Part shown: positions 9,183 to 52,478 of the stretch, piece after piece
How the letters are laid out: each line of letters starts with the position of its first letter
Position numbering within the stretch: the stretch's first letter is position 1
NCBI GenBank assembly: GCA_965263035.1
Contig: OZ253580.1
Span: forward strand, 1,312,001-1,376,000
Length of the DNA: 64,000 bases
Reading direction: 5' to 3'
Origin: Acidobacteriota bacterium
GTDB taxonomy: Bacteria; Acidobacteriota; UBA6911; RPQK01; JAJDTT01
The notes under the pieces: generated by a model
Database searches by the model: none
What the model was told of the DNA's origin: nothing
The model's input: only the letters and a program-made list of their open reading frames with translations
Made by a program: the position numbers and the translations under genes

Positions 9183-9217
9183 AGAAATAGACTGTCCCCT
9201 TTTCGCCCTTTTCGGTC
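9183..9217 (+). repeat. AGAAATAGACTGTCCCCTTTT motif, site A
   Basis: Direct match to the motif, followed by a CCCTTTTCG duplication. Confidence 0.85.
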
Positions 9218-9296
9218 GTCCCGTGCCAAGGCGGCTCAACGCGCCTGAACTGTTTCATTGACCGGACGTTGTCGACATACTACTCGTCAAGGACCG

Positions 9297-10477
9297 ATGT
9301 CGCGTCATCGTATCTTCCAACAGCTCATCATCCTCGGCTGTAGTCTTCTTGCGGCCTTCAGCCCAGGCTGCTCCCTGCAGCGCAAGCCCAACATCGTCTT
9401 CATCCTCGCCGACGACCTGGGCTACCGCGAGCTGGGCTGCTTCGGCCAGGAGCTGATCCGCACCCCCAACCTGGACCGCCTGGCCCGGCAGGGGATGCGG
9501 CTGACGCAGCACTACTCGGGCAGCCCGGTCTGTGCTCCCTCCCGTTGCGTCCTGATGACCGGGAAGCACCCGGGCCATGCCTACATCCGCAGCAACAAGG
9601 CCACGCCACCCGAGGGTCAGGAGCCCATCCCCTCCGCGGAGATCACCCTGCCGGAATTGCTGCGGACACAGGGGTACGTCACCGGGGCCTTCGGCAAGTG
9701 GGGACTGGGTGGACCCGGATCCAGCGGAGACCCGCTGCGGCAGGGAATGGACCGATTCTTCGGATACAATTGCCAGAGCCACGCCCACAGCTACTATCCC
9801 TCCTACCTGTGGAAAGACAATCAGCGCATCCCGCTGCGGAACGATCCACCGGTTCCCGGGCACGCCGGCCTCGCCCCGGGAGACGACCCTTCCGATCCAC
9901 GCAGCTACGATCGCTTCAAGGGGCCCGACTATGCGCCCGACCGGATCAACGGCCAGGCGTTGGAGTTCATCCGGGCCAACCGGAACCGGCCGTTCTTCCT
10001 CTACTACCCGACCATCATTCCGCACTTGGCGCTTCACGTACCCGACGAGGAGCTCGAGCCCTATCTCGACCTGGGGTGGGAGGACCCACCCTTCTGGAAC
10101 TGGTCGGCGCCCCCCAGGCCAAGCCGAAGAAGATCGATGGAATCAGCCTGGCACCCACACTGCTCGGGCGAAGACAGGACCCGCGACCATTCCTGTACCG
10201 TGAGTTCCCCAGCTACGGAGGGCAGCAGGCGGTGCGCGTAGGAGACTGGAAGGCCGTCCGGCAGAACATGAACGATGGAAATCTCGAGGTCGAGTTGTAC
10301 CATCTCGCTCAGGACATCGGTGAGCGGAACAACATCGCCGACCGGCATCCGGAGGTGGCGTCGGAGCTCACCGCACTGATGGAGAGGGAGCACACGCCAT
10401 CCAGGTTGTTCCCACTGAAACCGCTGGACTCGCCACCAAGCAACTCGGAGGCAGCGAAGGGAGTCCACCTTCGATGA
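9297..10477 (+). pseudogene. Sulfatase with internal deletion and frameshift
   Basis: ILADDLG, CAPSR and GKWGLG in one frame up to WEDPPF (~10095), then the C-terminal PTLLEL...DGISLAP...ELYHLAQDIGE in another frame. The central SDNG/LRGxKG/EGGIRVP block is missing. Confidence 0.85.
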
Positions 10478-11937
10478 GCCTCCTGCGAATTCTGATCCCT
10501 CATCTGGTGCTTCTCTTCCTTCTGACGGACCCTGGCGCAGCCGCGGCCCGGCCCAACGTCGTCTTCATCCTGACCGACAACCACGGCGCCTGGACCCTCG
10601 GCTGCTACGGCAACCAGGACATCCGGACTCCGAATATCGATCGGTTGGCTTCCGAGGGAATGCTCTTCACCCGGGCAATGAGCAGCAATCCCGTCTGCTC
10701 CCCGACCCGCGCCACCTTCCTCACCGGCCTGATCCCGTCGCAGCACGGCCTCCACTCCTTCCTCGACAACAAGTACATGGTCGGCCCCGAGGCCTACTAC
10801 ACCCTGAAGGAGTTCGAGACGCTGCCCCGGATCCTGCACTCCGAAGGCTACGTCTGCGGTCTCAGTGGCAAGTGGCACCTGGGGGCCAACATGACGCCGC
10901 AGGACGGGTTCTCCTACTGGATCACGATGGTGCGGGGAAGTACGAGAAGCTTCTACGAAGACCCCATCATCCAGGACGGCGAGATCAGGAAGACCCCCAG
11001 GTACATGACCGATCTCTGGACCGAGCACGCGATCCGCTTCATCGAACAGAACCAGGGTGGTGAGCAGCCGTTCTTCCTCTATCTGGCCTACAACGGACCC
11101 TACTGCCTCGGACCGCTGCTGCTGGAGCCGGCGCGCAATCGCCACGCGGAGTATTACGCAGACAAGTACCTGCCGTCCTTTCCAAGAGACGCGGTTCACC
11201 CCTGGCAGTACAACAACAAGGCCTACCACAACAACATCGTGAGCATCCGGCGGGTCGCCGCCGAGGTGAGCGCCGTCGATGACGGCGTGGGCGAGGTCAT
11301 GGCGACCCTGAAACGGCTGGGACTGGAGGAGAACACGATCGTGATCTTCGCCGGCGACCAGGGCTGGATGGGCGGCCAGAACGGGTTCTTCGGGATGGGC
11401 GATCACACCCGCCCGATCGCGGCGCATGATCTGATGATGCAGATCCCCCTGATCTTCCGCCATCCACGAGGAATCAAACCGGGGAAGAAGGACATCATGG
11501 TCAGCAACTACGACTTCCTTCCCAGTCTCCTGGAGTATCTGGGCCTGGAGCATCGGATTCCCCGGAAGCCGAAGCTCCCGGGACGCAGCTTCGCCGCCGC
11601 CCTGCGAGGCCGGAAGATCGATTGGGAGACCCGGATGTTCTACGAGATGGAGGGCTGCCGCTCGGTGCGCACCGACGACTGGAAGTACGTGGCGCGCCGG
11701 CAGCCGGACGGGCCGGCCGAACTCTACGACATGGTCAACGATCCGCAGGAGAGGTTCAATCTCTACGGCCAGCCGCAGCACGCGAGCATTCAGCAGGAGA
11801 TGGCCGAGGAGCTCCGCCGCTTCTTCGAGGAATACGCCGACCCTCAATACGACATCTGGAAGGGAGGCCGTTCCAAGGCGCGAAGGCTCCTGGCCCCGGT
11901 CGGCCACCCGGACTACCGTCCGCTCCGGAAACAATAG
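10474..11937 (+). CDS. Formylglycine-type sulfatase (S1)
   Basis: ILTDN, CSPTRA, GKWHLG, GDQG, ELYDMVNDPQE. Confidence 0.92.
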   Translation: MSLLRILIPHLVLLFLLTDPGAAAARPNVVFILTDNHGAWTLGCYGNQDIRTPNIDRLASEGMLFTRAMSSNPVCSPTRATFLTGLIPSQHGLHSFLDNKYMVGPEAYYTLKEFETLPRILHSEGYVCGLSGKWHLGANMTPQDGFSYWITMVRGSTRSFYEDPIIQDGEIRKTPRYMTDLWTEHAIRFIEQNQGGEQPFFLYLAYNGPYCLGPLLLEPARNRHAEYYADKYLPSFPRDAVHPWQYNNKAYHNNIVSIRRVAAEVSAVDDGVGEVMATLKRLGLEENTIVIFAGDQGWMGGQNGFFGMGDHTRPIAAHDLMMQIPLIFRHPRGIKPGKKDIMVSNYDFLPSLLEYLGLEHRIPRKPKLPGRSFAAALRGRKIDWETRMFYEMEGCRSVRTDDWKYVARRQPDGPAELYDMVNDPQERFNLYGQPQHASIQQEMAEELRRFFEEYADPQYDIWKGGRSKARRLLAPVGHPDYRPLRKQ

Positions 11938-11949
11938 AGGGGAAGAGAG

Positions 11950-13482
11950 GTGATCCCGATGAGAGGTCGTCCACGGGGGACCCGTCCCACGGTGCTGGGG
12001 ATCTTCCTGCTGCGGATGATGCTCCGCACGATTGTCCCTTTGCTGGCGCTCCTCTCCGTTATGCCTGCTGTTGCGCAAGAGAACGCGCGGCCGAACTTCC
12101 TTGTCGTGCTGGCGGATGATCTGGGTTATGGCGACCTGGCTGGTTACGGTCATCCCAGAATCAAGACACCGAACCTGGATCAGCTTGCGCGCGAGGGACT
12201 GCGGTTGACGAGCTGTTACGCGGCGGCGCCGAATTGCTCCCCGGCGCGGACTGGCTTCATGACGGGGCGGACACCCTATCGGGCCGGCGTGCACAACTGG
12301 ATTCCCATGTTCTCGCCGGTGCACCTCCGGAGGGAAGAGATCACGGTCGCGACGCTGCTGCGGGACGCTGGATACGACACGTGTCACGTCGGCAAATGGC
12401 ATCTCAACGGTGACTTCAATCTGCCGACTCAGCCGCAACCCCGGGATCATGGCTTCAACTACTGGTTTTCCACGCAGAACAATGCCCTGCCGAATCACCG
12501 CAATCCCGACAACTTCGTCCGCAACGGCAGACCGGTTGGCCAACTCAAGGGCTATGCCGCGCCGCTGGTGACCGACGAGGCCATTCACTGGTTGAAGCAC
12601 GTCCGGGACAAGACGAAGCCGTTCTTCATCTACGTTTGCTACCACGAGCCACACGAGCCGATCGCGAGCGACGAGCGTTTCACCGATCTCTATGCTTCCG
12701 ACGACCCCAGCTATCGGGCTCATCACGGCAACATCACGCAACTCGACGATTCCTTTGGAAGGCTGGCCCAGACCATCGACGAGCTTGGGTTGCGCGACAA
12801 CACCTTCGTCTTCTTCACCAGCGACAACGGGCCGGCGATCACGGGAATTCACCCGCATGGATCGGCGGGCCCCTTGCGCGACAAGAAGGGATATCTCTAC
12901 GAGGGCGGCATCCGCGTCCCGGGCATCATCCGGTGGCCGGGGCAGGTAGAGGCGGGGTCCGAGTCGGACGTTGCCGTCAGCGGCGTCGATCTACTGCCGA
13001 CGCTCTGCGATCTCGCCGGCGTGGCCGTTCCCGGCGGCCGCGCCCTCGACGGTGTCAGCATTCGACCGCTGCTGGCGGGAGAATCGCTGGAGCGGACGAC
13101 GCCACTCTATTGGCACTTCCTGCGGGCCCGCGGAAAGCCCAAAGTCGCCATGCGCTCAGGGGACTGGAAGATCCTCGCGCATCTGGACCAGCCCGACCTG
13201 CCGGTCACTGCCGACATCGTGCCCGATGAGATGCGGATGCTGAAGACTGCGAGCCTGGCGCGGTTCGAACTGTACAATCTTCGCGACGACCTTGGTGAAA
13301 CCAGGGACTTGGCGGAACGAGAGCCGCAGCAGCTTGCCAGACTTGCTGATCAGTTGCGGTCGATGTATGCCGAGGTCCAGGCGGAGAGCCCGTTGTGGCC
13401 CGCCTGGAAGTGGCCCCGATACGAGGCGCAGCGGATCGAGTGGCCGCCGTACCGCAATCGGCCCAAGCCCGGGAACAAGTGA
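11950..13482 (+). CDS. Formylglycine-type sulfatase (S1)
   Basis: LADDLGYGD, CSPART, GKWHL, FTSDNG, KGYLYEGGIRVP. The true start may be near 12016. Confidence 0.92.
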   Translation: MIPMRGRPRGTRPTVLGIFLLRMMLRTIVPLLALLSVMPAVAQENARPNFLVVLADDLGYGDLAGYGHPRIKTPNLDQLAREGLRLTSCYAAAPNCSPARTGFMTGRTPYRAGVHNWIPMFSPVHLRREEITVATLLRDAGYDTCHVGKWHLNGDFNLPTQPQPRDHGFNYWFSTQNNALPNHRNPDNFVRNGRPVGQLKGYAAPLVTDEAIHWLKHVRDKTKPFFIYVCYHEPHEPIASDERFTDLYASDDPSYRAHHGNITQLDDSFGRLAQTIDELGLRDNTFVFFTSDNGPAITGIHPHGSAGPLRDKKGYLYEGGIRVPGIIRWPGQVEAGSESDVAVSGVDLLPTLCDLAGVAVPGGRALDGVSIRPLLAGESLERTTPLYWHFLRARGKPKVAMRSGDWKILAHLDQPDLPVTADIVPDEMRMLKTASLARFELYNLRDDLGETRDLAEREPQQLARLADQLRSMYAEVQAESPLWPAWKWPRYEAQRIEWPPYRNRPKPGNK

Positions 13483-13565
13483 GGCCTTCCGGTCGCCACC
13501 TGGTTCCACATAGTGGTCTCGGGTTCGGATCCGTACCAAACTTGCGCATCGAGAGCTCGACCGGA

Positions 13566-15038: not shown

Positions 15039-15140
15039 CGCGATTCCTCCTTTGCCCTTCCAGGCGAGTGCCCTTCCAGGCGAGCACAATCCGTCCCAAG
15101 AGATTGAAGAACGGAGACCCGGCACTGCCCCCCCTGCCCG

Positions 15141-15195
15141 GAAGAAACAGACTGTCCCCTTTTCGGTCCGTCCCCTTTTCGGTCCTTTCGAGTCC
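15141..15195 (+). repeat. GAAGAAACAGACTGTCCCCTTTT motif, site B
   Basis: Motif followed by tandem TCCCCTTTTCGGTCC duplications. Confidence 0.85.
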
Positions 15196-15313
15196 AGACA
15201 TCGGATTGAAGGGTTTTTAGCGGCGACCCCGGGCCGCCGTGAGAGCCGAAATTCAAAAGAAAGCATACTTTGGTCTAAAGTCCAGGGCGACGACTGATAC
15301 CATTCGAGCAGTT

Positions 15314-16531: not shown

Positions 16532-16932
16532 GTGTGGAGCTCGATCCGGGCCGAATTGAAACTCAACCTGGCAACCTGTCCTTTCGTCGCCAGTTCCAAG
16601 GGAACCGGGGTCCCCGGCACGACTATCTGTCGGCTCCGCTCGGGGTACCCGCCGGAAAAAGGTTCCTGGCGCCGGACCGGAGAGGCGGAACGCCTCACGG
16701 CACCGCGATCCGATTGCAGCTTCGCCTATGAAAGATCGCAAGCGATTGACGGGCGCCCGTTACGGTGCGAAGCTGCGGAAAACGTGAGGGCTCTCGGTTG
16801 CCCACCCTCCGACGCAGAGAGGATTGTGCCGTTGCCCAGCTCCATCTAGCCTGCACGGATTCGAAACGGCCGGACTCTTTTGCCGGAGCCTCCGGGGCCG
16901 GATCACGCCAGGGTGACATAGAGAATTCCATT

Positions 16933-40961: not shown

Positions 40962-41113
40962 CGGGTTCAACTCCTGCAGGATGGGTGCCACACGAAGCGA
41001 CACATTCGTCTGGTGGCCGAAGTATAGCATCCGTCCTCCCGGCGATCATGCTCCGGGAGCCTCACTGGAGCCGGCAAGGCGCGGTGGAGGGATTGAAACG
41101 ATCCGGCCCATGG

Positions 41114-41218
41114 GAAGAAACAGACTGCCAAGAAATAGACTGTCCCTTTTTTCGAAGGACGGAAGGAAGGACGGAAGGACGGACGCGGCGCGAAGGACGG
41201 ACGCGACGCGCACGCGCA
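41114..41218 (+). repeat. AGAAATAGACTGTCCCTTTT motif, site C (partial plus full copy) with GAAGGACG stutter
   Basis: GAAGAAACAGACTG-CC-AAGAAATAGACTGTCCCTTTTTT followed by GAAGGACG and GACGCG repeats. Confidence 0.85.
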
Positions 41219-41250
41219 TCTCGTTCCAGAACAAGCGCATCGGGCTAGCC

Positions 41251-43712
41251 CTGCCCTATACCCACAAATAGTGCTGGACAAACAAGAATGCCTGTCGTAG
41301 TCTTCACGACATGGTAGTTCAGAACCAGATCAAGCGCACCTTGAGCCGAGAGTTGGATCGTTTGCACGCCGTGATGAGGCGGGAGAAGTTCGCCCACCGG
41401 ACGGCGCTGGCGGACCGGGTCTGCTCGGAGTTTGGATTTCACGATGCCCGAGGGCGGGCGCAACGGAGCGGCTGCCTGAAGGCGCTCCGGGAGCTGGAGG
41501 CGGGCGGACGGATTCGTCTGCCGACGCCGCGACGGCGGGTGAAACATTGCGGGCCCCGAGGACTGGGCCGTGCGGTGCCGGAGCCGGTCGGGGTGCCCGA
41601 GACGGTGGACGGCGTGCGGGAGCTGGAGTTGATTCTGGTGGAGACGGGTCCGCAACGAGCGCTCTGGAACGAGTTGATGGCGCGAGAGCATCCACGGGGC
41701 GCGGGGCCGTTGGTGGGTGCTCAACTACGCTATCTGGTGGGCTCGGCCCACGGCTGGCTGGGGGGCTTGGGGTTCGGGGCGGCGGCGTTGCGGTTGCGGG
41801 ACCGGGACCGCTGGATCGGATGGGATGAGGAACAACGCCGGGCGCACCTGCACCGGGTGGTGGGGCTGAGCCGGTTTCTGATCCGTCCGTCAGTGAGGTG
41901 TCGTAATCTGGCCTCCCGGGTGCTGGGGGAGGTGTTGCGGCGGCTGGGTCCGGAGTTCCAGGCGCGCTACGGCTACCGTCCCTGGCTGGTGGAGACCTTC
42001 GTGGAGACGGCTCGCCACGATGGGGCCAGTTTGCGCGCCACGAACTGGAGGGTTCTGGGGCAGACGCAGGGTCGAGGCCGGCAAGATCGGGCGCACCGGG
42101 GTGCGGAGACGAGCAAGGCGATCTATGGGTATGAGTTGTGCCGGGATTGGCGGCGGCGGTTGGGGGTGGGACCGGCGCCGAGGCGGGGAGTGGAACCGAT
42201 GTCGGAGGGCGAGGGACTGGAGGGAGCGGGCTGGGCTCAGCAGGAGTTGGGCGGGGCGCCGCTGGGAGACCGGCGCTTGAGTCGGCGACTGGTGGAGAGT
42301 GCGCACCGACAGGCGCAGGAGCCGGGGCGGGCGTTCACGGGAGTGGCGCGGGGGGATTCTGCGGCGGTCAAGGGATACTACCGGCTGATCGACCAGCCGG
42401 AAGCCTCGGCGGTGACGGTGTCCAACATCCTGGCCCCGCACCGGGAGCGGACCCGGCAGCGGATGCAGGGGCAGCGGACGGTGCTGTGCATCCAGGACGG
42501 GAGCGATCTGAACTTCACGCGGCACGGCCGGTGTGAGGGACTGGGAGTGATCGGGCGCAACCAGACGGGAGCGACGGCGCGGGGACTGCATCTGCACGCG
42601 ACGCTGGTGGTGAGTGAGACGGGGCTGCCGCTGGGGGTGTTGCGGGCGAAGCTGGACGCGCCGAAGCCGGGACCGGTGGCCACGCGGAAAAAGAAGAAGA
42701 CGTATCGCTGGATCGAGGGACTTCGGGACTGCGCCGAGGTGTCGCGGTCCCTCGACGGGGTGCGGGTGGTCAGCGTGGTGGACCGGGAGGCGGATTTTTT
42801 CGCACTGTTCGCCGAGCAACGAGCGTCTCCGGAGGTGGAGTTGCTGGTGCGTGCGAAGCAGGATCGGGTGCTGAAGAGGAAGACCCCGGCGAAGGCGGCC
42901 GGGAAAAGCGCGGATCCGGACCCGGAGCAGAAGCGGAAGCTGTTCGGGCGCCTGCGATCGGCGCCGGTGCGGGCCCGGATGCTGCTGGAGGTGAAGCGTC
43001 AGAGTGCGCGGATCAAGGCCAGCAAGCAGGCGGCCCGCCCGCGGCGGCTGGCGCGGGTGGCTCGGATGGAACTGCGCTACGAGACCCTGACGATTCCGGC
43101 GCCGCGCGGGAACCCAACCGGCATCCCGTCGCTGAGACTGTCGGTGGTGCACGCGCGGGAGGTCGCGCCGCCGGCGCAGGGGAAGCGCCTGGAATGGTTC
43201 CTGCTCACCACCCTGCCGGTGACCGATGTCGAGACGGCGCAGCAACTGCTGAGATGGTATGCGCTGCGCTGGCGGGTGGAGGATTATTTCCGGGTGCTCA
43301 AGACCGGATGCCGGGTACAACAGCTCCAGCACCAAACCGCCGAACGTCTGAAACGGGCCATCGCCATGCACGCCGTCATCGCCTGGCGGATCATGCTGAT
43401 GACGCTGTTGGGGCGAGAGGACCCGGACCTGCCGGCGCAATTGTTGTTTTCCGATCTGGAAATCCGGGTCCTGGGGGCGTTTGCCGCGTCGCGAGGATTC
43501 CCAGCGCCGGAAGACCTGGGGGCGGCCGTGCTCGTGCTGGCCCGCCTGGGAGGATATCTGGCTCGTAAACACGACTCCCCACCTGGGCATCAACTGATGT
43601 GGCAGGGCTACGTCACGCTCTACGGCATGTGTCTGGGCTTCGCTTTACGAGAAGAAACATGAATGAAACCGGACGGCTAATTTGCCCTGTGCAATATGTG
43701 GGTAAAGGGCAG
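41251..43712 (+). mobile_element. IS4-family (IS50-like) insertion sequence, 2462 bp
   Basis: Terminal inverted repeats CTGCCCTATACCCACA / TGTGGGTAAAGGGCAG; 8-bp direct target duplication GGCTAGCC on both sides. Confidence 0.93.
41311..43662 (+). CDS. IS4-family transposase with N-terminal DUF4338 (DruA-like) domain
   Basis: N-terminal RDRWIGW, RFLIRP, NLASR, LVETFV, NW..LGQTQGRGRQD; then LGDRRL, CIQD, DREAD, RWRVEDYFRVLKTGC, ARLGGYLARKHD.PPG. Confidence 0.9.
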   Translation: MVVQNQIKRTLSRELDRLHAVMRREKFAHRTALADRVCSEFGFHDARGRAQRSGCLKALRELEAGGRIRLPTPRRRVKHCGPRGLGRAVPEPVGVPETVDGVRELELILVETGPQRALWNELMAREHPRGAGPLVGAQLRYLVGSAHGWLGGLGFGAAALRLRDRDRWIGWDEEQRRAHLHRVVGLSRFLIRPSVRCRNLASRVLGEVLRRLGPEFQARYGYRPWLVETFVETARHDGASLRATNWRVLGQTQGRGRQDRAHRGAETSKAIYGYELCRDWRRRLGVGPAPRRGVEPMSEGEGLEGAGWAQQELGGAPLGDRRLSRRLVESAHRQAQEPGRAFTGVARGDSAAVKGYYRLIDQPEASAVTVSNILAPHRERTRQRMQGQRTVLCIQDGSDLNFTRHGRCEGLGVIGRNQTGATARGLHLHATLVVSETGLPLGVLRAKLDAPKPGPVATRKKKKTYRWIEGLRDCAEVSRSLDGVRVVSVVDREADFFALFAEQRASPEVELLVRAKQDRVLKRKTPAKAAGKSADPDPEQKRKLFGRLRSAPVRARMLLEVKRQSARIKASKQAARPRRLARVARMELRYETLTIPAPRGNPTGIPSLRLSVVHAREVAPPAQGKRLEWFLLTTLPVTDVETAQQLLRWYALRWRVEDYFRVLKTGCRVQQLQHQTAERLKRAIAMHAVIAWRIMLMTLLGREDPDLPAQLLFSDLEIRVLGAFAASRGFPAPEDLGAAVLVLARLGGYLARKHDSPPGHQLMWQGYVTLYGMCLGFALREET

Positions 43713-43790
43713 GGCTAGCCGGTCCTGCTACCGATCACGGAGCGTGACCGCCGAGACCGACCCTCGCAATGCGCGGGAGTTCCATAACGT

Positions 43791-44111
43791 TTATCGCGGG
43801 ACCGCCTCGCGCGCCAGCGTGTCCTCCCGCCATCCGCGCGCCCGTCGCGCCTGCGCGAGCTCGTAGCTCGCCTGCATTCGCATCCAGTGATCGGCGGTGC
43901 CCCAACCGAGCGCCTCCAACGCGAGCGCCATGTTCGTCGACACGCCCGCCTTGCCGTTCAGCAGACGCGACAGGGTCCCTCGCTCGCATCCCAGGCGCGC
44001 CGCCGTCTCGGTCACGTTCCATCCGACCTCGTCCATGCTCTCACGGATCAGTTCGCCCAAGTGCGGGGGGTTCAGCATCGGACCCGGGCGCTCGCCGCCT
44101 GTGCCGTTCAT
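43791..44111 (-). CDS. higA: HigA-family antitoxin (HTH)
   Basis: NPPHLGELIRE...LSRLLNGKAGVS..MALAL...WMRMQASYEL; lies directly downstream of the toxin gene. Confidence 0.9.
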   Translation of the reverse strand: MNGTGGERPGPMLNPPHLGELIRESMDEVGWNVTETAARLGCERGTLSRLLNGKAGVSTNMALALEALGWGTADHWMRMQASYELAQARRARGWREDTLAREAVPR

Positions 44112-44129
44112 GATCTTTCCTCCTTCCCG

Positions 44130-44402
44130 TCAGTGGTAATCTACCAGTTTCACATCCACGACCTCGCCGTCCTCGAAGCGGAACACCACGCGCCAGTTGC
44201 CCGACACGCGTACGCTCCATTGGCCGGTCCGGCTGCCCTTCAACGGATGCAGCCGGAACCCGGGCGCGTCCGCGCTGCCGGGATGGGTCGCTTCTTGCAA
44301 CCGGAACAGTATGCGTCGAAGCCGGGGCACCAGATTCGCCGGGAGCCGAGCCCGATCATCCCGCTCATGGAGCGCCCGCAGTCCCTTGTGCCTGATCTTC
44401 AT
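44130..44402 (-). CDS. higB: HigB/RelE-family toxin (plasmid maintenance killer type)
   Basis: IRHKGLRAL...PGFRLHPLKG...WSVRVSGNWRVVFRF...VDYH. Confidence 0.92.
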   Translation of the reverse strand: MKIRHKGLRALHERDDRARLPANLVPRLRRILFRLQEATHPGSADAPGFRLHPLKGSRTGQWSVRVSGNWRVVFRFEDGEVVDVKLVDYH

Positions 44403-44429: not shown

Positions 44430-44436
44430 CGAAACG

Positions 44437-44457
44437 GAAGAAATAGACTGTCCCTTT
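44437..44457 (+). repeat. GAAGAAATAGACTGTCCCTTT motif, site D
   Basis: Direct match, lying between the higB promoter and the stop of the amidohydrolase gene. Confidence 0.85.
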
Positions 44458-44479
44458 ATTGAGTCTGAATTCCTCCGTT

Positions 44480-45568
44480 TTATTCCAGCCCGAACAGACG
44501 TGTTGCATTTCCGCCGAAGAAGAGCGACTTGTCCTCCTCGGACATGAACTCGGCGTGCAGACGGACATAGTCCATTGCCTGCCGGTAGGTGACACTGCGT
44601 TCGGCCGCCGGCATATCCGAACCCCAGATCAGCTTTTCCGGTCCCAGCTCGTCGTACAACCGTTTGAGCATGTCCTGTGCCCATGAGAATGGGTATTCGG
44701 TGTCCGGCGCCATCAACTGCAGCATGACTTCCAGACTCAGGTTCGGGTTCTTGAGGCAGGTCAGGACTTCAACCGGGATATCGAATCGCTCTTCGGGGGG
44801 ACGCATGACGATGGTCTCGATGCCGTGGGTATAGACGCAGGGAATATCCGGGTGCGACTTGGCCCAGCGGTCCAGACGGACGACCTGCTCCAGGTAGCTG
44901 CCGAGCCGATCCCGGTGACTCGTGTAGAGGTACCAGAACACCGGAATATCCAGCCGGCGGACCGTCTCCCACAGGGGTTCGAACTTGGCGTCGTCCAGGT
45001 GATCGACCCAGCCGGTGAAGGCCAACGATTCAACGGCGAAATAGAGTCCCCTCAACCCCAGGTTTTCGACGGAGTACTCCAATCGGGACCATTGGAGTTC
45101 CTGATCCGCCTCCCACTCCCGGATCTGAGCCAGCGGAAGGAACCGTCCTGGATACCGGTTCATGCAGTCGCTCAGGATCTCATTGAGGCTGCCGTAGATA
45201 TGATCGTGTTGCAGGACCGCCATATCCACACCCAGATAGTCCATGTAGGCGATCATGAGTTCGGGGGGAGCCGCCATGTCCTGCAACCAACAGGGATACC
45301 ACTGCAGATAGTAGTCTTCTCCATCCACGGTGCATTCCAACTGGCCGTGCCCCGCAATGCGGAAATGGACATCCCGCATATCCGCTATGCCCTCGCCGGT
45401 CGGCATCAGCAGTGAGTCATCGGCACGCAAACCGTCGCGGCGCCGACGCCAGCCTTGGGAGTGGAACTGCACGTGGTGCTGGATGATGTGCAACTGGGTC
45501 TCCGCCGTCTGGTCACCCGAGTCGGTGCCCAGACGCGGAAATACATGAGCATGGGCATCGATAATCAT
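44480..45568 (-). CDS. Amidohydrolase family 2 protein
   Basis: IIDAHAH; KLIWGSDMP; FGGNATRLF. Confidence 0.88.
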   Translation of the reverse strand: MIIDAHAHVFPRLGTDSGDQTAETQLHIIQHHVQFHSQGWRRRRDGLRADDSLLMPTGEGIADMRDVHFRIAGHGQLECTVDGEDYYLQWYPCWLQDMAAPPELMIAYMDYLGVDMAVLQHDHIYGSLNEILSDCMNRYPGRFLPLAQIREWEADQELQWSRLEYSVENLGLRGLYFAVESLAFTGWVDHLDDAKFEPLWETVRRLDIPVFWYLYTSHRDRLGSYLEQVVRLDRWAKSHPDIPCVYTHGIETIVMRPPEERFDIPVEVLTCLKNPNLSLEVMLQLMAPDTEYPFSWAQDMLKRLYDELGPEKLIWGSDMPAAERSVTYRQAMDYVRLHAEFMSEEDKSLFFGGNATRLFGLE

Positions 45569-45616
45569 CTGATCCGAGCCTCCCCCGGGACGATAAGTTA
45601 CGTATGCCAGGGGAGG

Positions 45617-48496
45617 TCAAGGCTGGTAGTCGACCCAGGCCGGAGACCCCCAGGCCATTTCCCCATCTTCCTGGATAACGCGAAGATAGTAGTAGCTCTC
45701 CCCCGGCGCGGAAGCGTTGTCCGCGTACTGGAACTCGACCCGCTTCTGATCGGGGGTAACCGAGTAGACGATCCGGTTGTCTTTGATGACGTCCACGCGG
45801 CGGATGGGCTGGGTGCCCGTCAAGTCGGCCGTGATTCGAACCGGAGTGGCGCTCCTGAAGGCCTCCCCCATCAAGTGCTCTCCGTCCGATCCGTGGAATC
45901 GGACATCCAGGATGATGTTGTCCGTGGCGGCGTAGGCACGGCGGGCGCGGATGGCCTCCAGGAGCCCCTCCGGCGTCAGCTCTTCGGCGATCAGGCAGGC
46001 GTAGCTGATATGGGTGGAAATATGGTCCGAGGAGGCGATGAATCCCAGCTTGTAGCCCTTCTCCAGCGCGCTCCAAGCGGTTCCCATCCGACGAAAGGGC
46101 CGGTTGTCCTGCTCCAGCGTGGAACTGGGCCGAACCGTCATGGGCTGAGGGGCTCCCGGGTACTCGTAGGTCTCCCGCATTCCCTGGAAGATCTCCAGCA
46201 GATGCTCGACCCTGGGGTCGTTGTCCCGCCAGTCGGTACCGGAACCGGTCGCTATGGTGTGCGGGATGGAGGTTCCGTTTTTGCGCCGGAGGTGCCAAAA
46301 GAGCCTCTCGGACCCCTCCAGGCCCAGGTGCTCGGCCGACTCGATGGGGAGGATCGAGGTTCCCCGGCGGATGAAGAAGACGTTGCGGTGACCGTTGGGG
46401 AATTCGAGGCTGCGTTCGTAACCGTAGAAGGCGGCGAAGTTCTCCAACTGGAAGAGGTCGGCGACCTTCTGGTTCCGCCACCAGTTGTAGGGCTCGACGA
46501 TCTCGTGGTTGTGGTCCGTGACACCCAGAAAGTCCAGCCCGGCGGCATCCCGGGCGTATCTGTAAGCGTCCACCAGGGAGCCGTCGCCCCCGCCGTCCAG
46601 GGAGATATCGGTATGGCGGTGCAGGTCACCACGGTAGATGGTAAAAGTCCGGCCTCGTGAGTGAATCCGGTAAGAGCGGATTCGTTCCAGATCGCCGGTC
46701 TCGTCGGGATGGACGGGATCGAAGGAGTCTACGGGCGGAAGCCGGAGACGAGACAATTCGATCGGGGACGGCTCGCCGCGGCCCAGAAGCCCCACCATGA
46801 CCTGTCCGTGCACGGCCAGGAAGGATTTCGTGCTGCGATTGTCGGTAGGCCAGGCGGCCCAGACGCGGCCGTCCGAGTCGAGCGCGGTTGCCGGTATCAT
46901 GTCGTTCCGGCCCGCGCTGTTGAAGAGCGGCGTCGGATGAGTCCACCGGGACCCGTCGTATCGCAGACAGACGATCTCCCACGAGGGAAAGTAGCGCCCG
47001 CGGCCCTCGGACTGGCGCATCTTCAGGTGCCGAACCAGCAGCCAGGGATGACCCGCGGCATCCGCCTGGAGGTGGGGCATCTCCCATTTCCCCTCCCCCA
47101 GGACCGCGGAGAGATTCTGGCGGGTGGTCATCCATTCACCGTCGGCAAGGCACGCCACCCGTAGCGACCTGGTCTCGTAAAGCTCCGTTCCTTTGGACTG
47201 GCCGCTCTGATCGACGAGCCGCCCCGTGTCCTTGCCCCACTGCGGACCCGACTCGTGCCAGGCGATCCAGGTCCGTCCCCGGCCATCCATGGCCACCGAG
47301 GCGCCGGCTTCGAACCGATCCGTCGCAGCCACGCTCCGGACGTCCTTCCACCGTCCCGACTGCCGCAGTCTGAGATAGACGTCGTAGCTGCCGGAAGCGT
47401 AGCCGTCCCAGGCGATGGCCAGTTGGCCATCGGGACCCGCGGCAACCGACGGCCACCAGTTGTTTCCTCCAGCCGCTGGCCCTTCACTGATCGGAACCTC
47501 CTGGCCCCAGCGTTGGCCGTCGAAGTCCTGGGCCACGATCTGGGTCACGCCGCCGACCGTTTTCTGCCAGACCAGCCAGAGCCGTCCCTCCGCATCGGTG
47601 ACGGCTCGGTGGTAGATGTCCGGACTCGGATGGTCGGTGAGCTGTTGGCGGGAAGACCATTGTTCCCCATCGAAATTTCGCGCGTAAAGATCCCAATTCC
47701 CTTCCTCCTGGGCAGACCAGACAACCCAGATCCGCCCCTTGGAATCCTCAGCTACGGCCGTGCGAAAGGCGTCCACGTCCGCATCCAGCAGGTGGACCGG
47801 GCCCCAGCCCGACTCGCCCCGAGACCGGGCCACGACCTGATCCGCCTCTCCCTCGACGTATTCCTGCCACGCGGCCCAGAGCTTGCCGGAGCGCGTCGCC
47901 GTCATTGCAGGATAGTCCTGGATGTCGAAGCGCTCGGGGGCCAGAGGCGAAGACGGCGGGACCGATTCCACCACGACGGCTCCCTCCAGAAACGTCTCGG
48001 CCTGAAAGAGCTGGATGCCATCGGGCCGGAAACTGACCGATCCCTTCGCCGTCTCGATCCGGATGGGCTGGTCTCCTGGATTCTCCAGCACGCTTACGAT
48101 GACGCTGGGATGGCGAAGAGTGCTCTTTCCCCTGCGAGCCCAGCTCATGCGGGTGGCCGCCACCCAGCCCAGTTTCCCCTTGATCTGGTCGTTGGGAAGC
48201 TGAGGATCGGCGTCGACCGAGTGGATGCTGTCGAGGAAGCTGTGGCGGTAGATGTTGGCCCGGAACTCGTCCGGCCTCAGCTCAAGCTTCTGACCAGGTA
48301 CCGGGACCAGCCTGCCGCTCCAGATTCCGGGTTCCGAATCGAGGAGTCCCAGCCGGACCCGGAAGGAAGCTTCGGGAAGCAGAATTTCAGTCGAGGGCGG
48401 CGGCGGAGAGCCGGCGGGCCGGCATTGGGACAGCCCGATCGCCAACGCCAGCACTCCCAGACCCGACAGCGACAACGATACGCGTCCGACTGCCAT
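45617..48496 (-). CDS. Secreted beta-propeller plus PHP-type (DUF3604/CehA-McbA-like) metallohydrolase
   Basis: Repeated DxxGRxWxxW blades; GDLHRHT, LDFLGVTDH, IPHT, GFIASSDH; C-terminal YYYLRVIQEDGEMAWGSP. Confidence 0.75.
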   Translation of the reverse strand: MAVGRVSLSLSGLGVLALAIGLSQCRPAGSPPPPSTEILLPEASFRVRLGLLDSEPGIWSGRLVPVPGQKLELRPDEFRANIYRHSFLDSIHSVDADPQLPNDQIKGKLGWVAATRMSWARRGKSTLRHPSVIVSVLENPGDQPIRIETAKGSVSFRPDGIQLFQAETFLEGAVVVESVPPSSPLAPERFDIQDYPAMTATRSGKLWAAWQEYVEGEADQVVARSRGESGWGPVHLLDADVDAFRTAVAEDSKGRIWVVWSAQEEGNWDLYARNFDGEQWSSRQQLTDHPSPDIYHRAVTDAEGRLWLVWQKTVGGVTQIVAQDFDGQRWGQEVPISEGPAAGGNNWWPSVAAGPDGQLAIAWDGYASGSYDVYLRLRQSGRWKDVRSVAATDRFEAGASVAMDGRGRTWIAWHESGPQWGKDTGRLVDQSGQSKGTELYETRSLRVACLADGEWMTTRQNLSAVLGEGKWEMPHLQADAAGHPWLLVRHLKMRQSEGRGRYFPSWEIVCLRYDGSRWTHPTPLFNSAGRNDMIPATALDSDGRVWAAWPTDNRSTKSFLAVHGQVMVGLLGRGEPSPIELSRLRLPPVDSFDPVHPDETGDLERIRSYRIHSRGRTFTIYRGDLHRHTDISLDGGGDGSLVDAYRYARDAAGLDFLGVTDHNHEIVEPYNWWRNQKVADLFQLENFAAFYGYERSLEFPNGHRNVFFIRRGTSILPIESAEHLGLEGSERLFWHLRRKNGTSIPHTIATGSGTDWRDNDPRVEHLLEIFQGMRETYEYPGAPQPMTVRPSSTLEQDNRPFRRMGTAWSALEKGYKLGFIASSDHISTHISYACLIAEELTPEGLLEAIRARRAYAATDNIILDVRFHGSDGEHLMGEAFRSATPVRITADLTGTQPIRRVDVIKDNRIVYSVTPDQKRVEFQYADNASAPGESYYYLRVIQEDGEMAWGSPAWVDYQP

Positions 48497-48625
48497 AGAG
48501 GTTCCTCCGAAAAGGGTGGTGATCCAGTCGGTCTGAAGAATACCAACCGAGGGGGACTGTCCAACGGATCGGAACTCAAGCCCAAGTTCGGCGAGCTCCC
48601 CGGTCCCGAACCCGGCACACCGGCA

Positions 48626-50125
48626 TCAGTGAAACCGGAATGCGTACAGATGGGCGTCGCGGAGGCGAATGCGCAGACGGACCGGAAGGCCGGCGAAGCG
48701 GGAGAGGTCGACCCGGGGTTCCCACCGCACGACTCACCCGGTTCGATCTCCGGCGATTCTAGGGCAATCCTTCATTCCCACGCCCGGAAGGGGAGCTCCG
48801 GTTTCGTCCTGGAGCTCGACCCGAAGGCCGCCCCCTGCGCTCGTGCTGTAGTTGAGCTCCAGCCGGCTGCCGCTGAAGACGATGGGCCGGGTCGTGAATT
48901 CACCCCACCCCTCGTAGGGACCCTCCACCGACACGAAGCCGTCGTTCCGGAGCGAACAGCGCCGAAGCCGGCATTCGGGCGAGCGGTACAGTTCCGTGTA
49001 GTACATGGAGATTTCATCGCGTCCGGTGGGCACCACCCCCTGCCCCATGATGGGATTTCGGTCCACCCAATTGCGTTGGTCCGGACCCGGGCTCAGGAAA
49101 GGCTTCCGGAGCGGCCGCAGCCAGTGCACTCCGTCCCGGCTGGTGGCCAACTGAACGTCGGAGAGCCCGGTCTGATACTCCAGGCTCTTGTCGTCCCTCA
49201 CGTAGAACACCATGGGGAACATGAGAAAGCTGCGGGCCGCCCGGAAATAATTGACGGCGGCATTGGTGTAGTGATGGAGGTTGGCGGGATCCTTCAGGTC
49301 TCGGGCCAGCACCATTTCGGGCTCCGACCAGTGGAGGAAATCCTGGGACTCGCAGCGCCGGATCGCCCGGCGCCCCCCTCTGAAACGGGACTTGTCCACT
49401 TCCGGCCGGTTGTGGACATAGCGCCGGCCCTCCGGATCCCACATGACGGGACCTCCGGTCGAGGTGTCGACGCCTCGCATGTAGATGACGTAGAGACCTC
49501 GTTCGTCGTCCCACAACAGGGTATTGTGGCTGTCGAAGGGCCCCGAGATGGCCAGCGGAGTCTCTCGCACCGGCTTCCAGCCGATTCCGTCCGGAGAAAC
49601 ATAGCCGCGAAGCCCGCCGGAAGAGGCGATCATCTTGTAGCGCCCGGGACTTCCCGGCGGCTCATTGGGATCCAGAATCTGGCTGGCGTTGTGAAGCTCG
49701 GCACCTCCCAGGATATTGTTGTTTCTGGATCCCTGGAAGGAGTACAGGCCCAGGTTCGGCTTGATCCAGCGAACGCCGTCGCCGCTTTCCGCATAGCAGG
49801 TCCGCCGGCCTGCCCGGTAGCACATCTGATATCGGCCGCCGGAGTGGACGACCGAACTGTAGTGGATGCCTTCCGCTTCCCAGGGCCGGTCGCTTTCCAG
49901 CGCCGTTTCCCGGGGCAGCGGACGATGCAGCGTGAGCCGGATATTCCATGTCCGGTCGAACCAGTAGTCGTCCAGAAACAACTGCCGCCTCGATCCGACG
50001 TCGATGGGCCCGGCACGGTCCGGGACGGCGCTTCGGCCCGGCAAGAAAGTTCCGGCTCCCAGCGTCAGGCCGGCGACGCCCGTAGACTTCAGCCAACTGC
50101 GGCGGGTCCTTCGAATTTGGCTCAT
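48626..50125 (-). pseudogene. Tat-exported beta-propeller family gene with an in-frame TGA at 48734-48736
   Basis: RRSWLK Tat motif; VGSRRQLFLDD. After the TGA the same frame continues VVRWEPRVDLSRFAGLPVRLRIRLRDAHLYAFRFH to a stop at 48626. Confidence 0.8.
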
Positions 50126-50470
50126 GAATGCCAGACCTCCATTTTCCGCAGAACGGACCCACGGCCCGCTTGTCATCGATGCCGAGCCAGCCGCCGATGG
50201 AGTGCACCCCAGAATCGTCCCTTGAGCCGGAAAATATCCTCGGCTGACGCCAGTCTATCTGTCCCCGGCGCGGTACATCCAGACAGGCTCTATCGGCTGG
50301 TTCGGTATGAGCATGAATTGGGGAACGGGATCGAGTGAGACGAAATGAGCGGCTGCATCCGTGATTCCGTTTCCGAAAAGCGGGGTTTCGGCAGATTGGG
50401 GCGCCGGGAGTTCATCGAGTCGGAAGTGGGGCTGATCTCATCTCTGAGCGTGAACCCGCCGGCACGGAGG

Positions 50471-50523
50471 GAAGAAATAGACTGTCCCCTTTTTAGGTAG
50501 GGACTGTCCCTCTATAGGGGACT
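50471..50523 (+). repeat. GAAGAAATAGACTGTCCCCTTTTT motif, site E, plus a partial GGACTGTCCC copy
   Basis: Direct match to the motif. Confidence 0.85.
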
Positions 50524-50737
50524 CCGAGAGGACCCCGTGTATGCCTCCTGGATCTCGTGAAGAAGACCGGCTTCGAGGCACGATTTGCACAATCCGTCGT
50601 CGCGGGCGTACAAACGGGAGGTCGGCGGCCACCATGGGACCAGGAGCCGGCTGGCGGCAGGGCCGCGCAAGCAATCCGCGCCGTCTCCCCCCAACCGCCC
50701 TGGCTGATCGGCACGGTCGGAAGAGAGGAGAATCCCC

Positions 50738-52300
50738 ATGAATCATCCGAGGCTCGTGACCATCATCTGCGGTGTGGGCTGGCTGCTCCTGACTTCCTGT
50801 GGAAGCGCGACCGATCCGCCTTCCAGGGGGGCCAACGTCGTTGTCATCTTCGCCGACGATCTGGGCTACGGTGACATCGGCAGTTTCAACCCCGACTGCC
50901 CGTTCCGCACACCCAACCTGGACCGGATGGCGAGCCAGGGAGCCCGGCTGACCAGCTTCTACGTCCCCCTGCCCTACTGCGCGCCTTCACGAGGAACCCT
51001 GCTGACGGGCCGCTACCCGTTTCGCCACGGCGTCGTCTTCAACCCCGCGCCCGATGACGGACGCTCGGGCTTCGGCCTCCCGTCGTCGGAGGTCACCCTG
51101 GCGGAGGTCCTGAAGACTGCCGGCTACGCGACGGCGGCCTATGGCAAGTGGCACCTGGGCCACGAAGAGCCGTGGCTCCCCCGCACTCAGGGCTTCGACG
51201 AGTATTTCGGCATTCTCTATTCCAACGACATGTTTCCGGTACAGCTGGTTGGAAACGAGGAGGTGGTGGAATACCCCGTGGTGCAGGCCACCCTCACCCG
51301 TCGCTACACCGATCTGGCGCTTCGCTTCATCGAGACCAACCGGGCCCGCCCCTTCTTCGTGTATCTGGCTCATGCCATGCCCCACAAGCCTCTGGCGGTG
51401 TCCGATGACTTCTACACGCCCGAGAGCAGGGAGGATCTCTACGCCGATGTGATCGCCGAGTTGGACCACTCGGTGGGCCGGATCCTCCAGAGGTTGGACG
51501 ATCTGGATCTGTCAGAAGACACCCTGGTGATCTTCACCTCGGACAACGGCCCCTGGTACGGCGGATCCACCGGTGGCTTGCGGGGGATGAAGGGAAAGAC
51601 CTGGGAAGGGGGATTGCGGGTGCCCCTGATCGCTCGCCTTCCCGGTGTCATTCCCCCCGGAGTCGTCAACCCCGAGCCTGCTGGGACCATCGACATACTC
51701 CCGACGGTATGCGGGCTGACCGGAGCTCCCCTGCCGGAAAACCGCGTCCTGGACGGCAAGGACATCCTGCCGCAGCTCCGGGATGGCAAAGCCCCGAGCC
51801 CCCACGACGGCATCTATGGAATGAAGGGGGCGGCACTGTCCACGATTCGCTCGGGCCGGTGGAAGCTCCATGTTCGAAGCCCGGGGCCGCGGCGATACGC
51901 CGATTCGTCGGCGGAGGAGCTGGCACAGTGGGTCGACCGCCGGGGACCGGACGGAGTCACAATCCTGGCTCCCTATGAGCAGCCCAAGCCCGACCAATAC
52001 CCCGGCTTGATCAGCGGCGATGGACCCGGCGACGGGATGCTCTTCAACCTCGAGAGCGATCCAGGCGAGCAACATGACGTGTCCGCTCAGCATCCCGAGG
52101 TCGTCCAGGATCTGATGACCCGATTCGAAGCGCTGGCGGCCCAGGTCCCGGAATTTCAGGGACCACCGCCCCACTACTACCTGTTTGGATCTCCTGCCGA
52201 GGGGGAGCCGAGACCCTTGATGCGGCTCATCGGCGGTGAGCTGCGATATGACGGGATTCCCAGGTCACAGCAGCATCTCTTGGCCACGCAACCAGAGTGA
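50738..52300 (+). CDS. Arylsulfatase A-like sulfatase, probable lipoprotein
   Basis: LTSC lipobox-like; [34 protein letters not shown]. Confidence 0.92.
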   Translation: MNHPRLVTIICGVGWLLLTSCGSATDPPSRGANVVVIFADDLGYGDIGSFNPDCPFRTPNLDRMASQGARLTSFYVPLPYCAPSRGTLLTGRYPFRHGVVFNPAPDDGRSGFGLPSSEVTLAEVLKTAGYATAAYGKWHLGHEEPWLPRTQGFDEYFGILYSNDMFPVQLVGNEEVVEYPVVQATLTRRYTDLALRFIETNRARPFFVYLAHAMPHKPLAVSDDFYTPESREDLYADVIAELDHSVGRILQRLDDLDLSEDTLVIFTSDNGPWYGGSTGGLRGMKGKTWEGGLRVPLIARLPGVIPPGVVNPEPAGTIDILPTVCGLTGAPLPENRVLDGKDILPQLRDGKAPSPHDGIYGMKGAALSTIRSGRWKLHVRSPGPRRYADSSAEELAQWVDRRGPDGVTILAPYEQPKPDQYPGLISGDGPGDGMLFNLESDPGEQHDVSAQHPEVVQDLMTRFEALAAQVPEFQGPPPHYYLFGSPAEGEPRPLMRLIGGELRYDGIPRSQQHLLATQPE

Positions 52301-52413
52301 TACGCCGTTCTCGGTTGCCGGCGCCACCACTCGGCCCGGTCGCTGATCCTACCTGGCGGGGTTTTTCTTGATCGGAATATCGTCGAAGGATTAGCAGTGA
52401 CCTTCACGCGGTA

Positions 52414-52478
52414 GAAGGAGACTGTCCCTTTTTGGGTCGGTCCCTTTTTGGGCCGGCGAGAAGAAACAGACTGTCCCT
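52414..52478 (+). repeat. Motif site F (two copies plus a micro-duplication)
   Basis: GAGACTGTCCCTTTTTGGGTCGG-TCCCTTTTTGGGCCGG-...GAAGAAACAGACTGTCCCT. Confidence 0.85.

Follow-up and report, generated by a model that had tools for sequence, protein, structure and literature searches.

Repeat copies and gene modules in the window

The 64,000-nucleotide (nt) stretch of DNA analysed here (the window; G000:C1:1312001-1376000) carries several copies of a short intergenic motif that share one orientation and lie between gene modules, among them a HigBA toxin-antitoxin pair and sulfatase genes. We trace this motif to a genome-wide repeat family that, together with a candidate transposase designated RAYT-A, probably belongs to the type of system formed by repetitive extragenic palindromes (REPs) and REP-associated tyrosine transposases (RAYTs). 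The genome under study, G000, is a single contig of 6.198 Mb with 62% G+C, in which our own rough codon-usage caller recognized 4223 genes that make up 84% of the sequence. Eight congeners (G001-G008) that are syntenic with the window at 86-97% identity were used for comparison.

When two or fewer mismatches are allowed, the 18-mer GAAGAAAYAGACTGTCCC matches the window at six positions (9181, 15141, 41129, 44437, 50471 and 52460), and all six matches are on the + strand. The number expected by chance is 0.01, and none of 100 shuffles attained six. Two extra copies are partial or variant, namely a left half alone at 41113 (GGAAGAAACAGACTG) and the form GAAGGAGACTGTCCC at 52414. An earlier, sequence-only reading of this DNA had described same-strand, intergenic copies, and by our gene calls this description is correct for the six full and the two partial copies alike. 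The surrounding genes diverge at copies A, B, C and E; the two genes at D share the - strand, and the two at F share the + strand. Because BLASTN finds the flanking sequences of copies B, C and E nowhere else in G000, these copies are not the ends of a larger repeated element. The copies are arranged as follows.

9181..9204, + strand: copy A, GGAGAAATAGACTG^TCCCCTTTTC; adjoins a 155-bp repeat at 9023-9177
15141..15185, + strand: copy B, with a second right-half unit after it (TCCCCTTTTCGGTCC)
41113..41154, + strand: copies C1 and C2, a left-half unit GGAAGAAACAGACTG and then CCAAGAAATAGACTG^TCCCTTTTTTCG; these form the left edge of an insertion, found in G000 only, of an insertion sequence (IS) plus HigBA
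44437..44460, + strand: copy D, GAAGAAATAGACTG^TCCCTTTATT; in its right arm and flank it agrees with the one ancestral copy that the congeners have
50471..50494, + strand: copy E, kept upstream of the sulfatase gene in G007, G006, G001, G005 and G008
52409..52486, + strand: copies F1 and F2 with mini-units, GGTAGAAGGAGACTG^ [TCCCTTTTTGGGTCGG] [TCCCTTTTTGGGCCGGCGAGAAGAAACAGACTG]^ TCCCTGTCAGGGG

The intervals between these copies contain the following genes and elements, as identified by Pfam.

9297-10241, + strand: sulfatase gene of interval A-B, truncated
10474-11937, + strand: sulfatase gene of interval A-B
11992-13482, + strand: sulfatase gene of interval A-B
13566-15038, - strand: sulfatase gene of interval A-B
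41241..43720, + strand: IS4-family insertion sequence inside the C-D module, with bounds set by homology to other copies
41311-43662, + strand: IS4-family transposase gene (783 amino acids)
43791..44402, - strand: toxin-antitoxin pair that is the cargo of the C-D module, HigA (43791-44111) and HigB (44130-44402)
44480..50176, - strand: genes of interval D-E, for an amidohydrolase (44480-45568), a 959-amino-acid protein (45617-48496) and a 480-amino-acid protein (48734-50176)
50738..52300, + strand: sulfatase gene that is the cargo of the E-F module

Most of these contents agree with the view, put forward in the sequence-only reading, that each interval is a coherent unit. Four sulfatase genes do make up interval A-B, of which the first is truncated and the last is on the - strand; C-D contains HigA and HigB together with the IS4-family element; and E-F holds a single sulfatase. 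That view fits two other intervals less well, since only the first of the three supposed hydrolases in D-E (all three genes are indeed on the - strand) is clearly an amidohydrolase, and the 26-kb B-C interval, which had been passed over, is not a coherent unit. Among the congeners, the D-E interval is always kept, and the number of A-B sulfatase genes downstream of window position 9177 differs.

A genome-wide family of dyad-symmetric extragenic repeats

The strict 18-mer, again with two or fewer mismatches, has 18 sites across G000, of which six fall within the window, and the clustering of the motif there is therefore real. A position weight matrix seeded with these 18 sites and iterated over the genome converges on 136 sites with the family consensus GAGAAGGTGAC-T-GTCCCCTTCTC; the consensus over 104 unique strong sites is GAGAGAAGGTGAC-T-GTCCCCTTCTC. 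Each site is a dyad of about 23 bp with the geometry 11+1+11, in which only position +/-4 is regularly unpaired and 10 of the 11 arm positions pair in 59-96% of the 104 sites. The conserved part extends over approximately 23-27 bp. Window copies keep the core and right arm (AGACTGTCCCCTTTT) and differ in the left arm (GAAGAAAYA), and forms such as GGAAGAAGTAGACTGTCCCTTTCTC are intermediate between the window variant and the main class. The window motif is a local variant, with a degenerate left arm, of this dyad-symmetric extragenic family.

Intergenic DNA harbours 117 of the 136 family sites, although about 84% of the genome is coding. These 117 sites are distributed over divergent (28), convergent (29) and tandem (60) regions, and under a stricter site definition the downstream gene is co-oriented with the motif at 37 of 66 intergenic sites and convergent at 29. 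The even spread and the near balance of orientations rule out a promoter or terminator function. Polarity within clusters is much stronger. Seven clusters contain at least four sites each, and 56 of their 62 sites lie on the majority strand of their own cluster, compared with a mean of 39.1 on shuffling and with none of 10,000 shuffles attaining 56. In the array at 2.28-2.31 Mb, for example, the sites are on the + strand and the genes are mostly on the - strand. Since cluster polarity is uniform and independent of the genes, the same-orientation pattern seen in the window is a property of the whole family. The earlier claim of polar sites thus extends beyond the window, and the random scatter and orientation across the genome that the sequence-only reading had named as grounds for abandoning its proposal are not what we find: sites are clustered, with uniform polarity inside clusters.

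With the origin placed near 2.873 Mb, solo copies of the strict motif have their complement on the lagging-strand template in 12 of 15 cases, but these represent just six loci, four of which agree. The replication-strand bias is therefore weak, and clusters of the wider family exhibit no replichore pattern. Separately, at window 37743-37765 G007 and G005 carry an extra 209-418 bp, including a family motif, that G000 lacks, and this is a presence/absence polymorphism of a motif copy.

Gain and loss of modules at repeat copies

One module difference is at the C/D position, between genes for a 3-keto-disaccharide hydrolase (window 41108) and an amidohydrolase (window 44479). A clear motif copy is present here in G001, G002, G003, G005, G006 and G007; the motif is degenerate in G004, and G008 has none. 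The insertion of IS plus HigBA is found in G000 alone, with a copy on each side, and HigBA does not occur at this position in any of the eight congeners. The outer arms of the bracketing copies resemble different relatives, in that C1 has a left arm (GAAGAAACAGACTG) like that of G001 and G004, and D has a right arm (TCCCTTTATTG) like that of G002, G003 and G006. The inner arms are new and similar to each other. Such hybrid arms would be expected if an incoming molecule with a motif copy of its own recombined with the copy already in place. In G001 and G004, HigBA homologues likewise lie between same-strand family copies.

A second locus, with main-class sites (L048 7.9-9.85 kb), presents a similar arrangement. 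There, G000 has an extra 1.96 kb between two same-strand copies, and G002, G003, G006 and G007 have a single copy between an oxidoreductase block and a TumE block. Homology of the oxidoreductase block starts at the motif in six different upstream contexts. At E-F, G002, G003 and G004 have no sulfatase gene, and neither does one of the two copies of the region in G006; the sulfatase-less junctions carry one or two motif copies in G002, G003 and that G006 copy (G006b), and none in G004. In six genomes, the distance from copy E to the start of the sulfatase gene downstream of it is 35-110 bp. Locus B varies in copy number, with two full tandem copies in G007.

Public sequencing runs (X8, X10, X1 and X2) were also examined in the form of Logan contigs, over parts of the window outside the C-D stretch, which contains the multi-copy IS. 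X1 and X2 are closely related runs in which the left flank of copy E (50290-50468) is replaced in a contig, and in X1 the right flank (50491-50733) is replaced as well, such that about 22 nt of motif is all that is common. Excision circles and empty-site joints (D to E, or E to F) were absent from these contigs, which cannot reveal rare circles, and this absence is thus uninformative about activity.

A common breakpoint in the repeat core

Partial copies provide a means to locate where the sites are broken. For 14 of 147 family sites, an 11-nt duplicate of the right half occurs within 70 nt, and in all 14 the repeated unit starts with TCCC(C), preceded by either no matching base (seven cases) or one (seven cases). 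Minimal 'empty' units of 28-33 nt, which read from TCCCC through the right arm and the left arm to GACTG, are present at F in the window, at B in G007 and at E-F in G003. At C, there is a left-half unit that ends in GACTG. The sole bond that fits all cases is GACTG^TCCCC, where the caret marks the breakpoint. If the site were folded as a single strand, this bond would fall in a 9-nt loop, TGACTG^TCC, closed by a 7-bp GAGAAGG/CCTTCTC stem, a placement that may be compared with that in HUH Rep origins.

RAYT-A, a candidate cognate transposase

A search of G000 with PF01797 yielded three Y1-transposase loci, and tblastn revealed that one of them belongs to a set of four intact paralogues, which we named RAYT-A.

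G000 800900-801856, + strand: RAYT-A paralogue
G000 1560682-1561638, - strand: RAYT-A paralogue
G000 1832141-1833097, + strand: RAYT-A paralogue
G000 5961150-5962127, + strand: RAYT-A paralogue

The encoded proteins are 311-326 amino acids long, with an HUH-type motif, HFH, at residue 78 and a motif with the putative catalytic Tyr, YVELN, at residue 177. Pairwise DNA identity among the paralogues is 90-97%, with dN/dS values of 0.12-0.31. Their best NCBIfam match is REP_Tyr_transpos (NF047646, REP-associated tyrosine transposase), whose 52.9 bits fall under the cutoff of 80. Public databases hold 555 homologues at E<=1e-5, some of which are named 'REP element-mobilizing transposase RayT' in their JGI source. 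A sequence search of the PDB with RAYT-A returned no relative. However, an AlphaFold model built from 23 sequences (predicted local distance difference test score 78.2) has as its top Foldseek match against the PDB the structure 4er8_A, E. coli TnpAREP bound to a REP hairpin (E 1.1e-5, probability 1.00, template modelling score 0.64 on the target). Matches ranked 2-12 are IS200/IS605 TnpA structures. RAYT-A is therefore predicted, from its modelled fold, to be a RAYT-like Y1/HUH single-strand DNA transposase of the TnpAREP type.

Each of the four RAYT-A genes is preceded, 30-300 bp upstream, by window-type copies in inverted orientation and is followed by a GAATCGAGACTGTCCCTTTC-type copy in the orientation of the gene. 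An upstream inverted copy was also found at nine of 11 loci examined in relatives, including two other genera. A RAYT-A locus in the more distant genome G023 has three upstream copies (-), with the left arm GAAGAAG(T/C)A, and five downstream copies (+). A motif-flanked Y1/HUH enzyme encoded elsewhere in the genome, as the sequence-only reading had anticipated, is thus present at 4/4 loci in G000 and 9/11 in relatives.

Two further observations concern these transposase genes. In G002:C1, the two flanks of the 0.80-Mb RAYT-A locus (L089, G000 797001-805500) sit 3.5 Mb apart, at approximately 5.09 Mb and 1.62 Mb, and each adjoins a RAYT-A copy, which suggests that a large rearrangement in G002 occurred by recombination between RAYT-A paralogues. 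G000 also possesses a pair of canonical RAYTs, family B, whose flanking repeat belongs to a second class and is a double hairpin. This repeat has the form GGGGGACA-N4-TGTCCCCC plus GGGGGTTAAAAACCCCC, lies on both sides of the RAYT gene (G000 3477680-3477740 and 3478425-3478480; L001), and has many further sites. The paralogue of the family B RAYT is at G000 2482816-2483487 and is 66% identical. The family B repeat has GACTGTCCCC-like letters in common with the motif studied here.

Co-occurrence of repeats and enzyme across genomes

We surveyed 31 related genomes for both components. The pattern RACTGTCCCCTTYT occurs in 19-107 copies in all nine genomes of the genus and in 79 copies in G023, compared with 0-5 copies in the remaining 21 genomes (the unpublished G016 among them) and 0-1 for reversed-pattern controls. 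RAYT-A homologues with at least 72% identity occur in exactly the 10 motif-rich genomes, and identity elsewhere is at most 57%. For example, the six genomes of a sister genus encode homologues with 46-54% identity and contain 0-1 motif matches. The two RAYT-A copies of G023 have 80% identity, and one of them lies within a dense motif region.

G023 is a 3.4-Mb genome from another family, in which about 60 family motifs are crowded into 70 kb (G023:C1 1.42-1.49 Mb, L083-L086). The motifs surround one of the two RAYT-A genes and include runs of 13-17 copies at intervals of 30-220 bp, and the region resembles an island gained by horizontal transfer.

A probable REP/RAYT-type system with cassette-like behaviour

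An extragenic repeat family, a cognate Y1 enzyme with inverted flanking copies, and the co-inheritance of the two together define a REP/RAYT-type system, and we consider it quite probable that the system of this genus is of this type in identity and architecture. Our confidence is lower, and only a little on the favourable side, for the joint claim that the family is REP/RAYT-type and that site-specific strand exchange in its core causes the module pattern. RAYT-A is most likely the cognate enzyme, and its substrate would presumably be single-stranded DNA. The RAYT route, rather than ordinary recombination, may move whole gene modules beyond short units.

On this proposal, RAYT-A would nick and rejoin one strand within the conserved core, at GACTG^TCCCC. 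DNA between two same-strand copies, ranging from 14 nt to several kilobases, might then be excised and inserted again at a different copy, which would leave hybrid, same-oriented copies on either side. Repeated rounds might build uniform-polarity arrays around modules such as HigBA or a sulfatase. Cassette-like exchange of this kind is plausible. A fuller version holds that the RAYT-like Y1/HUH enzyme drives integron-like cassette exchange on single-stranded DNA, that segments are circularised between excision and re-insertion, that polar cassette arrays of toxin-antitoxin, sulfatase and oxidoreductase genes result, and that the whole system has reached at least one genome from a different family (G023) by horizontal transfer. 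We offer this combined scenario tentatively and regard it as doubtful.

A number of observations weigh against the REP/RAYT-type reading or against RAYT-driven exchange of modules. Some concern the repeat. Ten single-stranded folds of window copies give z values of -0.9 to +1.1 relative to shuffled sequences, and the REP hairpin is therefore weak or absent in the window variant, which folds no better than shuffles. The 5' GTAG is found in a subset of sites only (T at -13 in 20 of 104), and among window copies F1 alone has GGTAG. By our own pair counts over the 104 sites, the dyad positions show one-sided changes and almost no two-sided covariation, and a double-stranded site for a dimeric protein is thus equally compatible with the data. 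Others concern the enzyme. RAYT-A is multi-copy, with four genes in G000 and 2-12 matches per genome. Its 0.80-Mb locus has the same flanks in seven of eight congeners (contigs of G008 break there), which fits vertical inheritance. At the 1.56-Mb locus, G001 and G004 have empty sites that contain no motif, and the inserted block exceeds the motif-bounded unit. Because related genomes are not independent, the co-occurrence of motif and enzyme amounts to two independent lineages only.

The remaining contrary points concern the modules. Three other HigBA homologue loci are unbracketed, and gene orientation relative to the motif is there opposite to that in G000. At locus B, the motif is missing from G001, G004 and G005 together with about 110 bp on its left side, and no motif marks these empty sites. 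Across the window, 10 of 14 gaps of at least 60 bp between G000 and G007 have no motif, and the other four have one in either genome. G001-G003 lack a 20-kb segment (window 16548-36886), and the junction left there contains no motif. Thus, the claim that modules are gained and lost at the motif holds for HigBA at C/D, for the E-F sulfatase and for the 1.96-kb segment of the second locus, and does not hold for most gaps or for the 20-kb indel. The junction of the 20-kb segment is clean (13-20 bp), and the segment is present in G004, G005 and G007.

Alternative explanations

The rival that survives best, although we judge it unlikely, treats the copies as passive REP-like repeats that the RAYT spread or left behind and that merely mark fragile or recombination-prone intergenic DNA, while modules are gained and lost by ordinary processes such as slippage, short-homology recombination or the import of alternative alleles through flanking homology. 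The motif-free gaps and 20-kb indel, the motif-free empty sites at B and at the 1.56-Mb RAYT-A locus, and the lack of circles or empty-site joints in Logan contigs all agree with this explanation. So does the age of the solo copies at C/D and E, which occupy orthologous positions in species that are 86-95% identical in the flanks, and the ends of the G002 rearrangement fall at RAYT-A copies, as homologous recombination predicts. Yet slippage and short homology do not predict that 14 of 14 duplications begin within one base of the same phosphodiester bond. Nor do passive repeats predict strong polarity within clusters, or modules that bring their own differently armed, same-orientation copy at two independent loci.

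An improbable alternative is that the motifs are core sites of a tyrosine recombinase, similar to integron, Xer/dif or pdif-module systems, with a dimer bound to arms of 8-11 bp, exchange across GACTGTC and insertion of circular modules. The conserved dyad with its asymmetric centre, the scarcity of covariation, and hybrid arms of the sort left by conservative site-specific recombination would suit such an enzyme. In addition, an Xer-like gene (G000 5547290-5548480) stands at the end of an array with at least 12 sites on one strand, and another array encloses a fragment of an Xer-like gene. However, the Xer-like family is represented only by fragments in the motif-rich genomes G004, G005, G008 and G023 and is intact in the motif-poor sister genus, and the search for an integron integrase in G000 gave at best a TIGR02249 score of 78.7 bits, where the cutoff is 265. 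Exchange across a common overlap region would not be expected to yield right-half units in which the left part of the centre is missing, and the geometry of the site is 11+1+11, not 11+6+11.

Finally, a regulatory element that travels with each gene (a transcription-factor operator, part of a promoter, or a terminator) is highly improbable, because even though five of six window copies lie upstream of a co-oriented + strand gene, copy E keeps its distance from the sulfatase start in six genomes and dyad symmetry suits a dimeric DNA-binding protein, the genome-wide orientation counts given above led us to reject a promoter or terminator, copy D faces two - strand genes, copies remain where the cargo gene is missing, inverted pairs flank the RAYT gene, and tandem half-units have no regulatory logic.

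Three specific candidates were also considered and set aside. A canonical integron was rejected on the absence of IntI from G000 and of any Rfam match at E<=1 on four arrays. The Xer-like recombinase at the 5.55-Mb array was rejected as the cognate enzyme on its distribution among genomes. The motifs were also rejected as TnpB/IS605 ends, as only two of 10 TnpB genes in G000 are near family motifs. The Xer-like gene itself (L048 1290-2480) encodes a protein of about 334 amino acids and belongs to a family with 8-12 members, full or partial, in G000. At the 5.55-Mb array its reading frame continues into a conserved 480-bp block, which every congener also has near its arrays. One TnpB gene (Cas12f1-like TNB / OrfB_IS605; G000 ~1310855-1312029) ends within the window, at positions 1-29.

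Other mobile sequences in the window

The sequence-only reading had placed a truncated miniature inverted-repeat transposable element (MITE) beside copy A and an IstB fragment beside copy F. The first is real, in that the 155-bp repeat at 9023-9177 has 138 BLASTN hits in G000, with copies approximately 80% identical, and is multi-copy in all congeners too. The second is not borne out, as the four open reading frames there match no Pfam family at E<=1 except for a chance-level TruB_C match. Another repeat of about 165-175 bp, at 55345-55509, has many copies with 95-99% identity in G000, G006 and G007 and looks like a recently active MITE. The IS4-family element within the C-D module has at least 12 copies in G000 that are 98-100% identical, and related copies occur in G007 and G005. 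The N-terminal region of its 783-amino-acid transposase matches the Pfam family DruA (Druantia protein) at E 3.6e-31. The Pfam families PSCyt1/PSCyt2/PSD1 and DUF1501 also occur in G000 and point to a planctomycete.

Significance and comparison with known systems

REP/RAYT systems are usually viewed as short non-coding repeats accompanied by a domesticated transposase, with an unclear effect on gene content. Here, repeats stand at the exact ends of gene-sized insertions, with a mappable breakpoint, polar arrays and the enzyme in two lineages. If the link to the enzyme is true, the system would represent a route for gene capture and shuffling that is built on HUH single-strand chemistry and is distinct from integrons, and its 23-nt site would offer a clean in vitro substrate for RAYT action. 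If that link fails, the findings still record a REP family from outside the Proteobacteria whose RAYT is unusual in being long and multi-copy. The portions of the Planctomycetes literature covered here contain no description of this motif or of REP-bounded gene modules; the family tables of PMC3733652 and PMC6006769 might hold a relative.

The defining features of REP/RAYT systems used for comparison are drawn from sections of PMC8266576, PMC6006769 and PMC3337134. As in the Proteobacterial examples (REPtrons with TnpAREP, and REPINs), the repeats are short extragenic palindromes present in tens to hundreds of copies, a Y1/HUH transposase gene lies between inverted repeat copies, the repeat family and enzyme are specifically paired, and the arrangement persists vertically, as at the 0.80-Mb locus. 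The differences are also considerable. Classical RAYTs are single-copy, whereas RAYT-A is multi-copy and has approximately twice their length. In the window variant the hairpin is weak or absent, and GTAG marks a subset of sites only. Most repeats here are singletons of uniform orientation rather than inverted doublets, the proposed break would fall within the conserved centre and not at a CT next to the hairpin, and gene-sized segments lie between copies. Those sections of PMC3337134 do not contain the rule GGGG(A/T)(C/G)A(C/G), which the sequence-only reading had given for such enzymes. According to the sections of Quentin et al. (2018, PMC6006769) used here, TnpAY1 subclass 2.3 is found mainly in Chromatiales and Alteromonadales and has no identifiable flanking REP-like structures.

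Elements of the IS200/IS605 'peel and paste' type (IS608, ISDra2) share with this system a Y1 HUH enzyme, same-strand ends that bracket a segment, fixed strand polarity, and conservative excision and insertion with no target duplication. Unlike those elements, RAYT-A lies between inverted copies, the left and right ends are the same site, there is no link to tnpB, and the replication-strand bias is weak. Moreover, RAYT-A copies are 90-97% identical rather than near-identical transpositions of a whole unit.

Integron arrays and CALINs (clusters of attC sites lacking integron integrases) resemble the arrays described here in having same-oriented imperfect palindromes between gene modules, a site left on each side, and cargo that includes toxin-antitoxin and GNAT genes. 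The attC sites of integrons are 57-141 bp long, with R''-L''/L'-R' boxes. By contrast, the present sites are 23 bp long, IntI is absent, the cargo is of ordinary gene size and in either orientation, and the candidate enzyme is of the HUH type.

Two other systems, Neisseria dRS3/NIME and Acinetobacter pdif, also use short palindromes to delimit repeat units or gene modules that differ between strains. Their cargo includes toxin-antitoxin pairs, and the enzymes proposed for them are phage-type or Xer recombinases. The pdif sites alternate in orientation, and the dRS3/NIME and pdif sequences differ from the motif studied here. In the sections of PMC3733652 used, dRS3 is mentioned. Xer/dif sites (28 bp, with 11-bp arms and a 6-bp spacer) differ from the 11+1+11 geometry of this family, with which an Xer-like recombinase is not co-distributed.

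The sequence-only reading had proposed an integron-like, non-attC array served by an enzyme encoded elsewhere. The motif-flanked RAYT, the polarity of the sites, and the gain and loss of modules agree with this description, but the absence of IntI does not. The system is better classed as REP/RAYT-type with cassette-like behaviour than as a new integron-like system.

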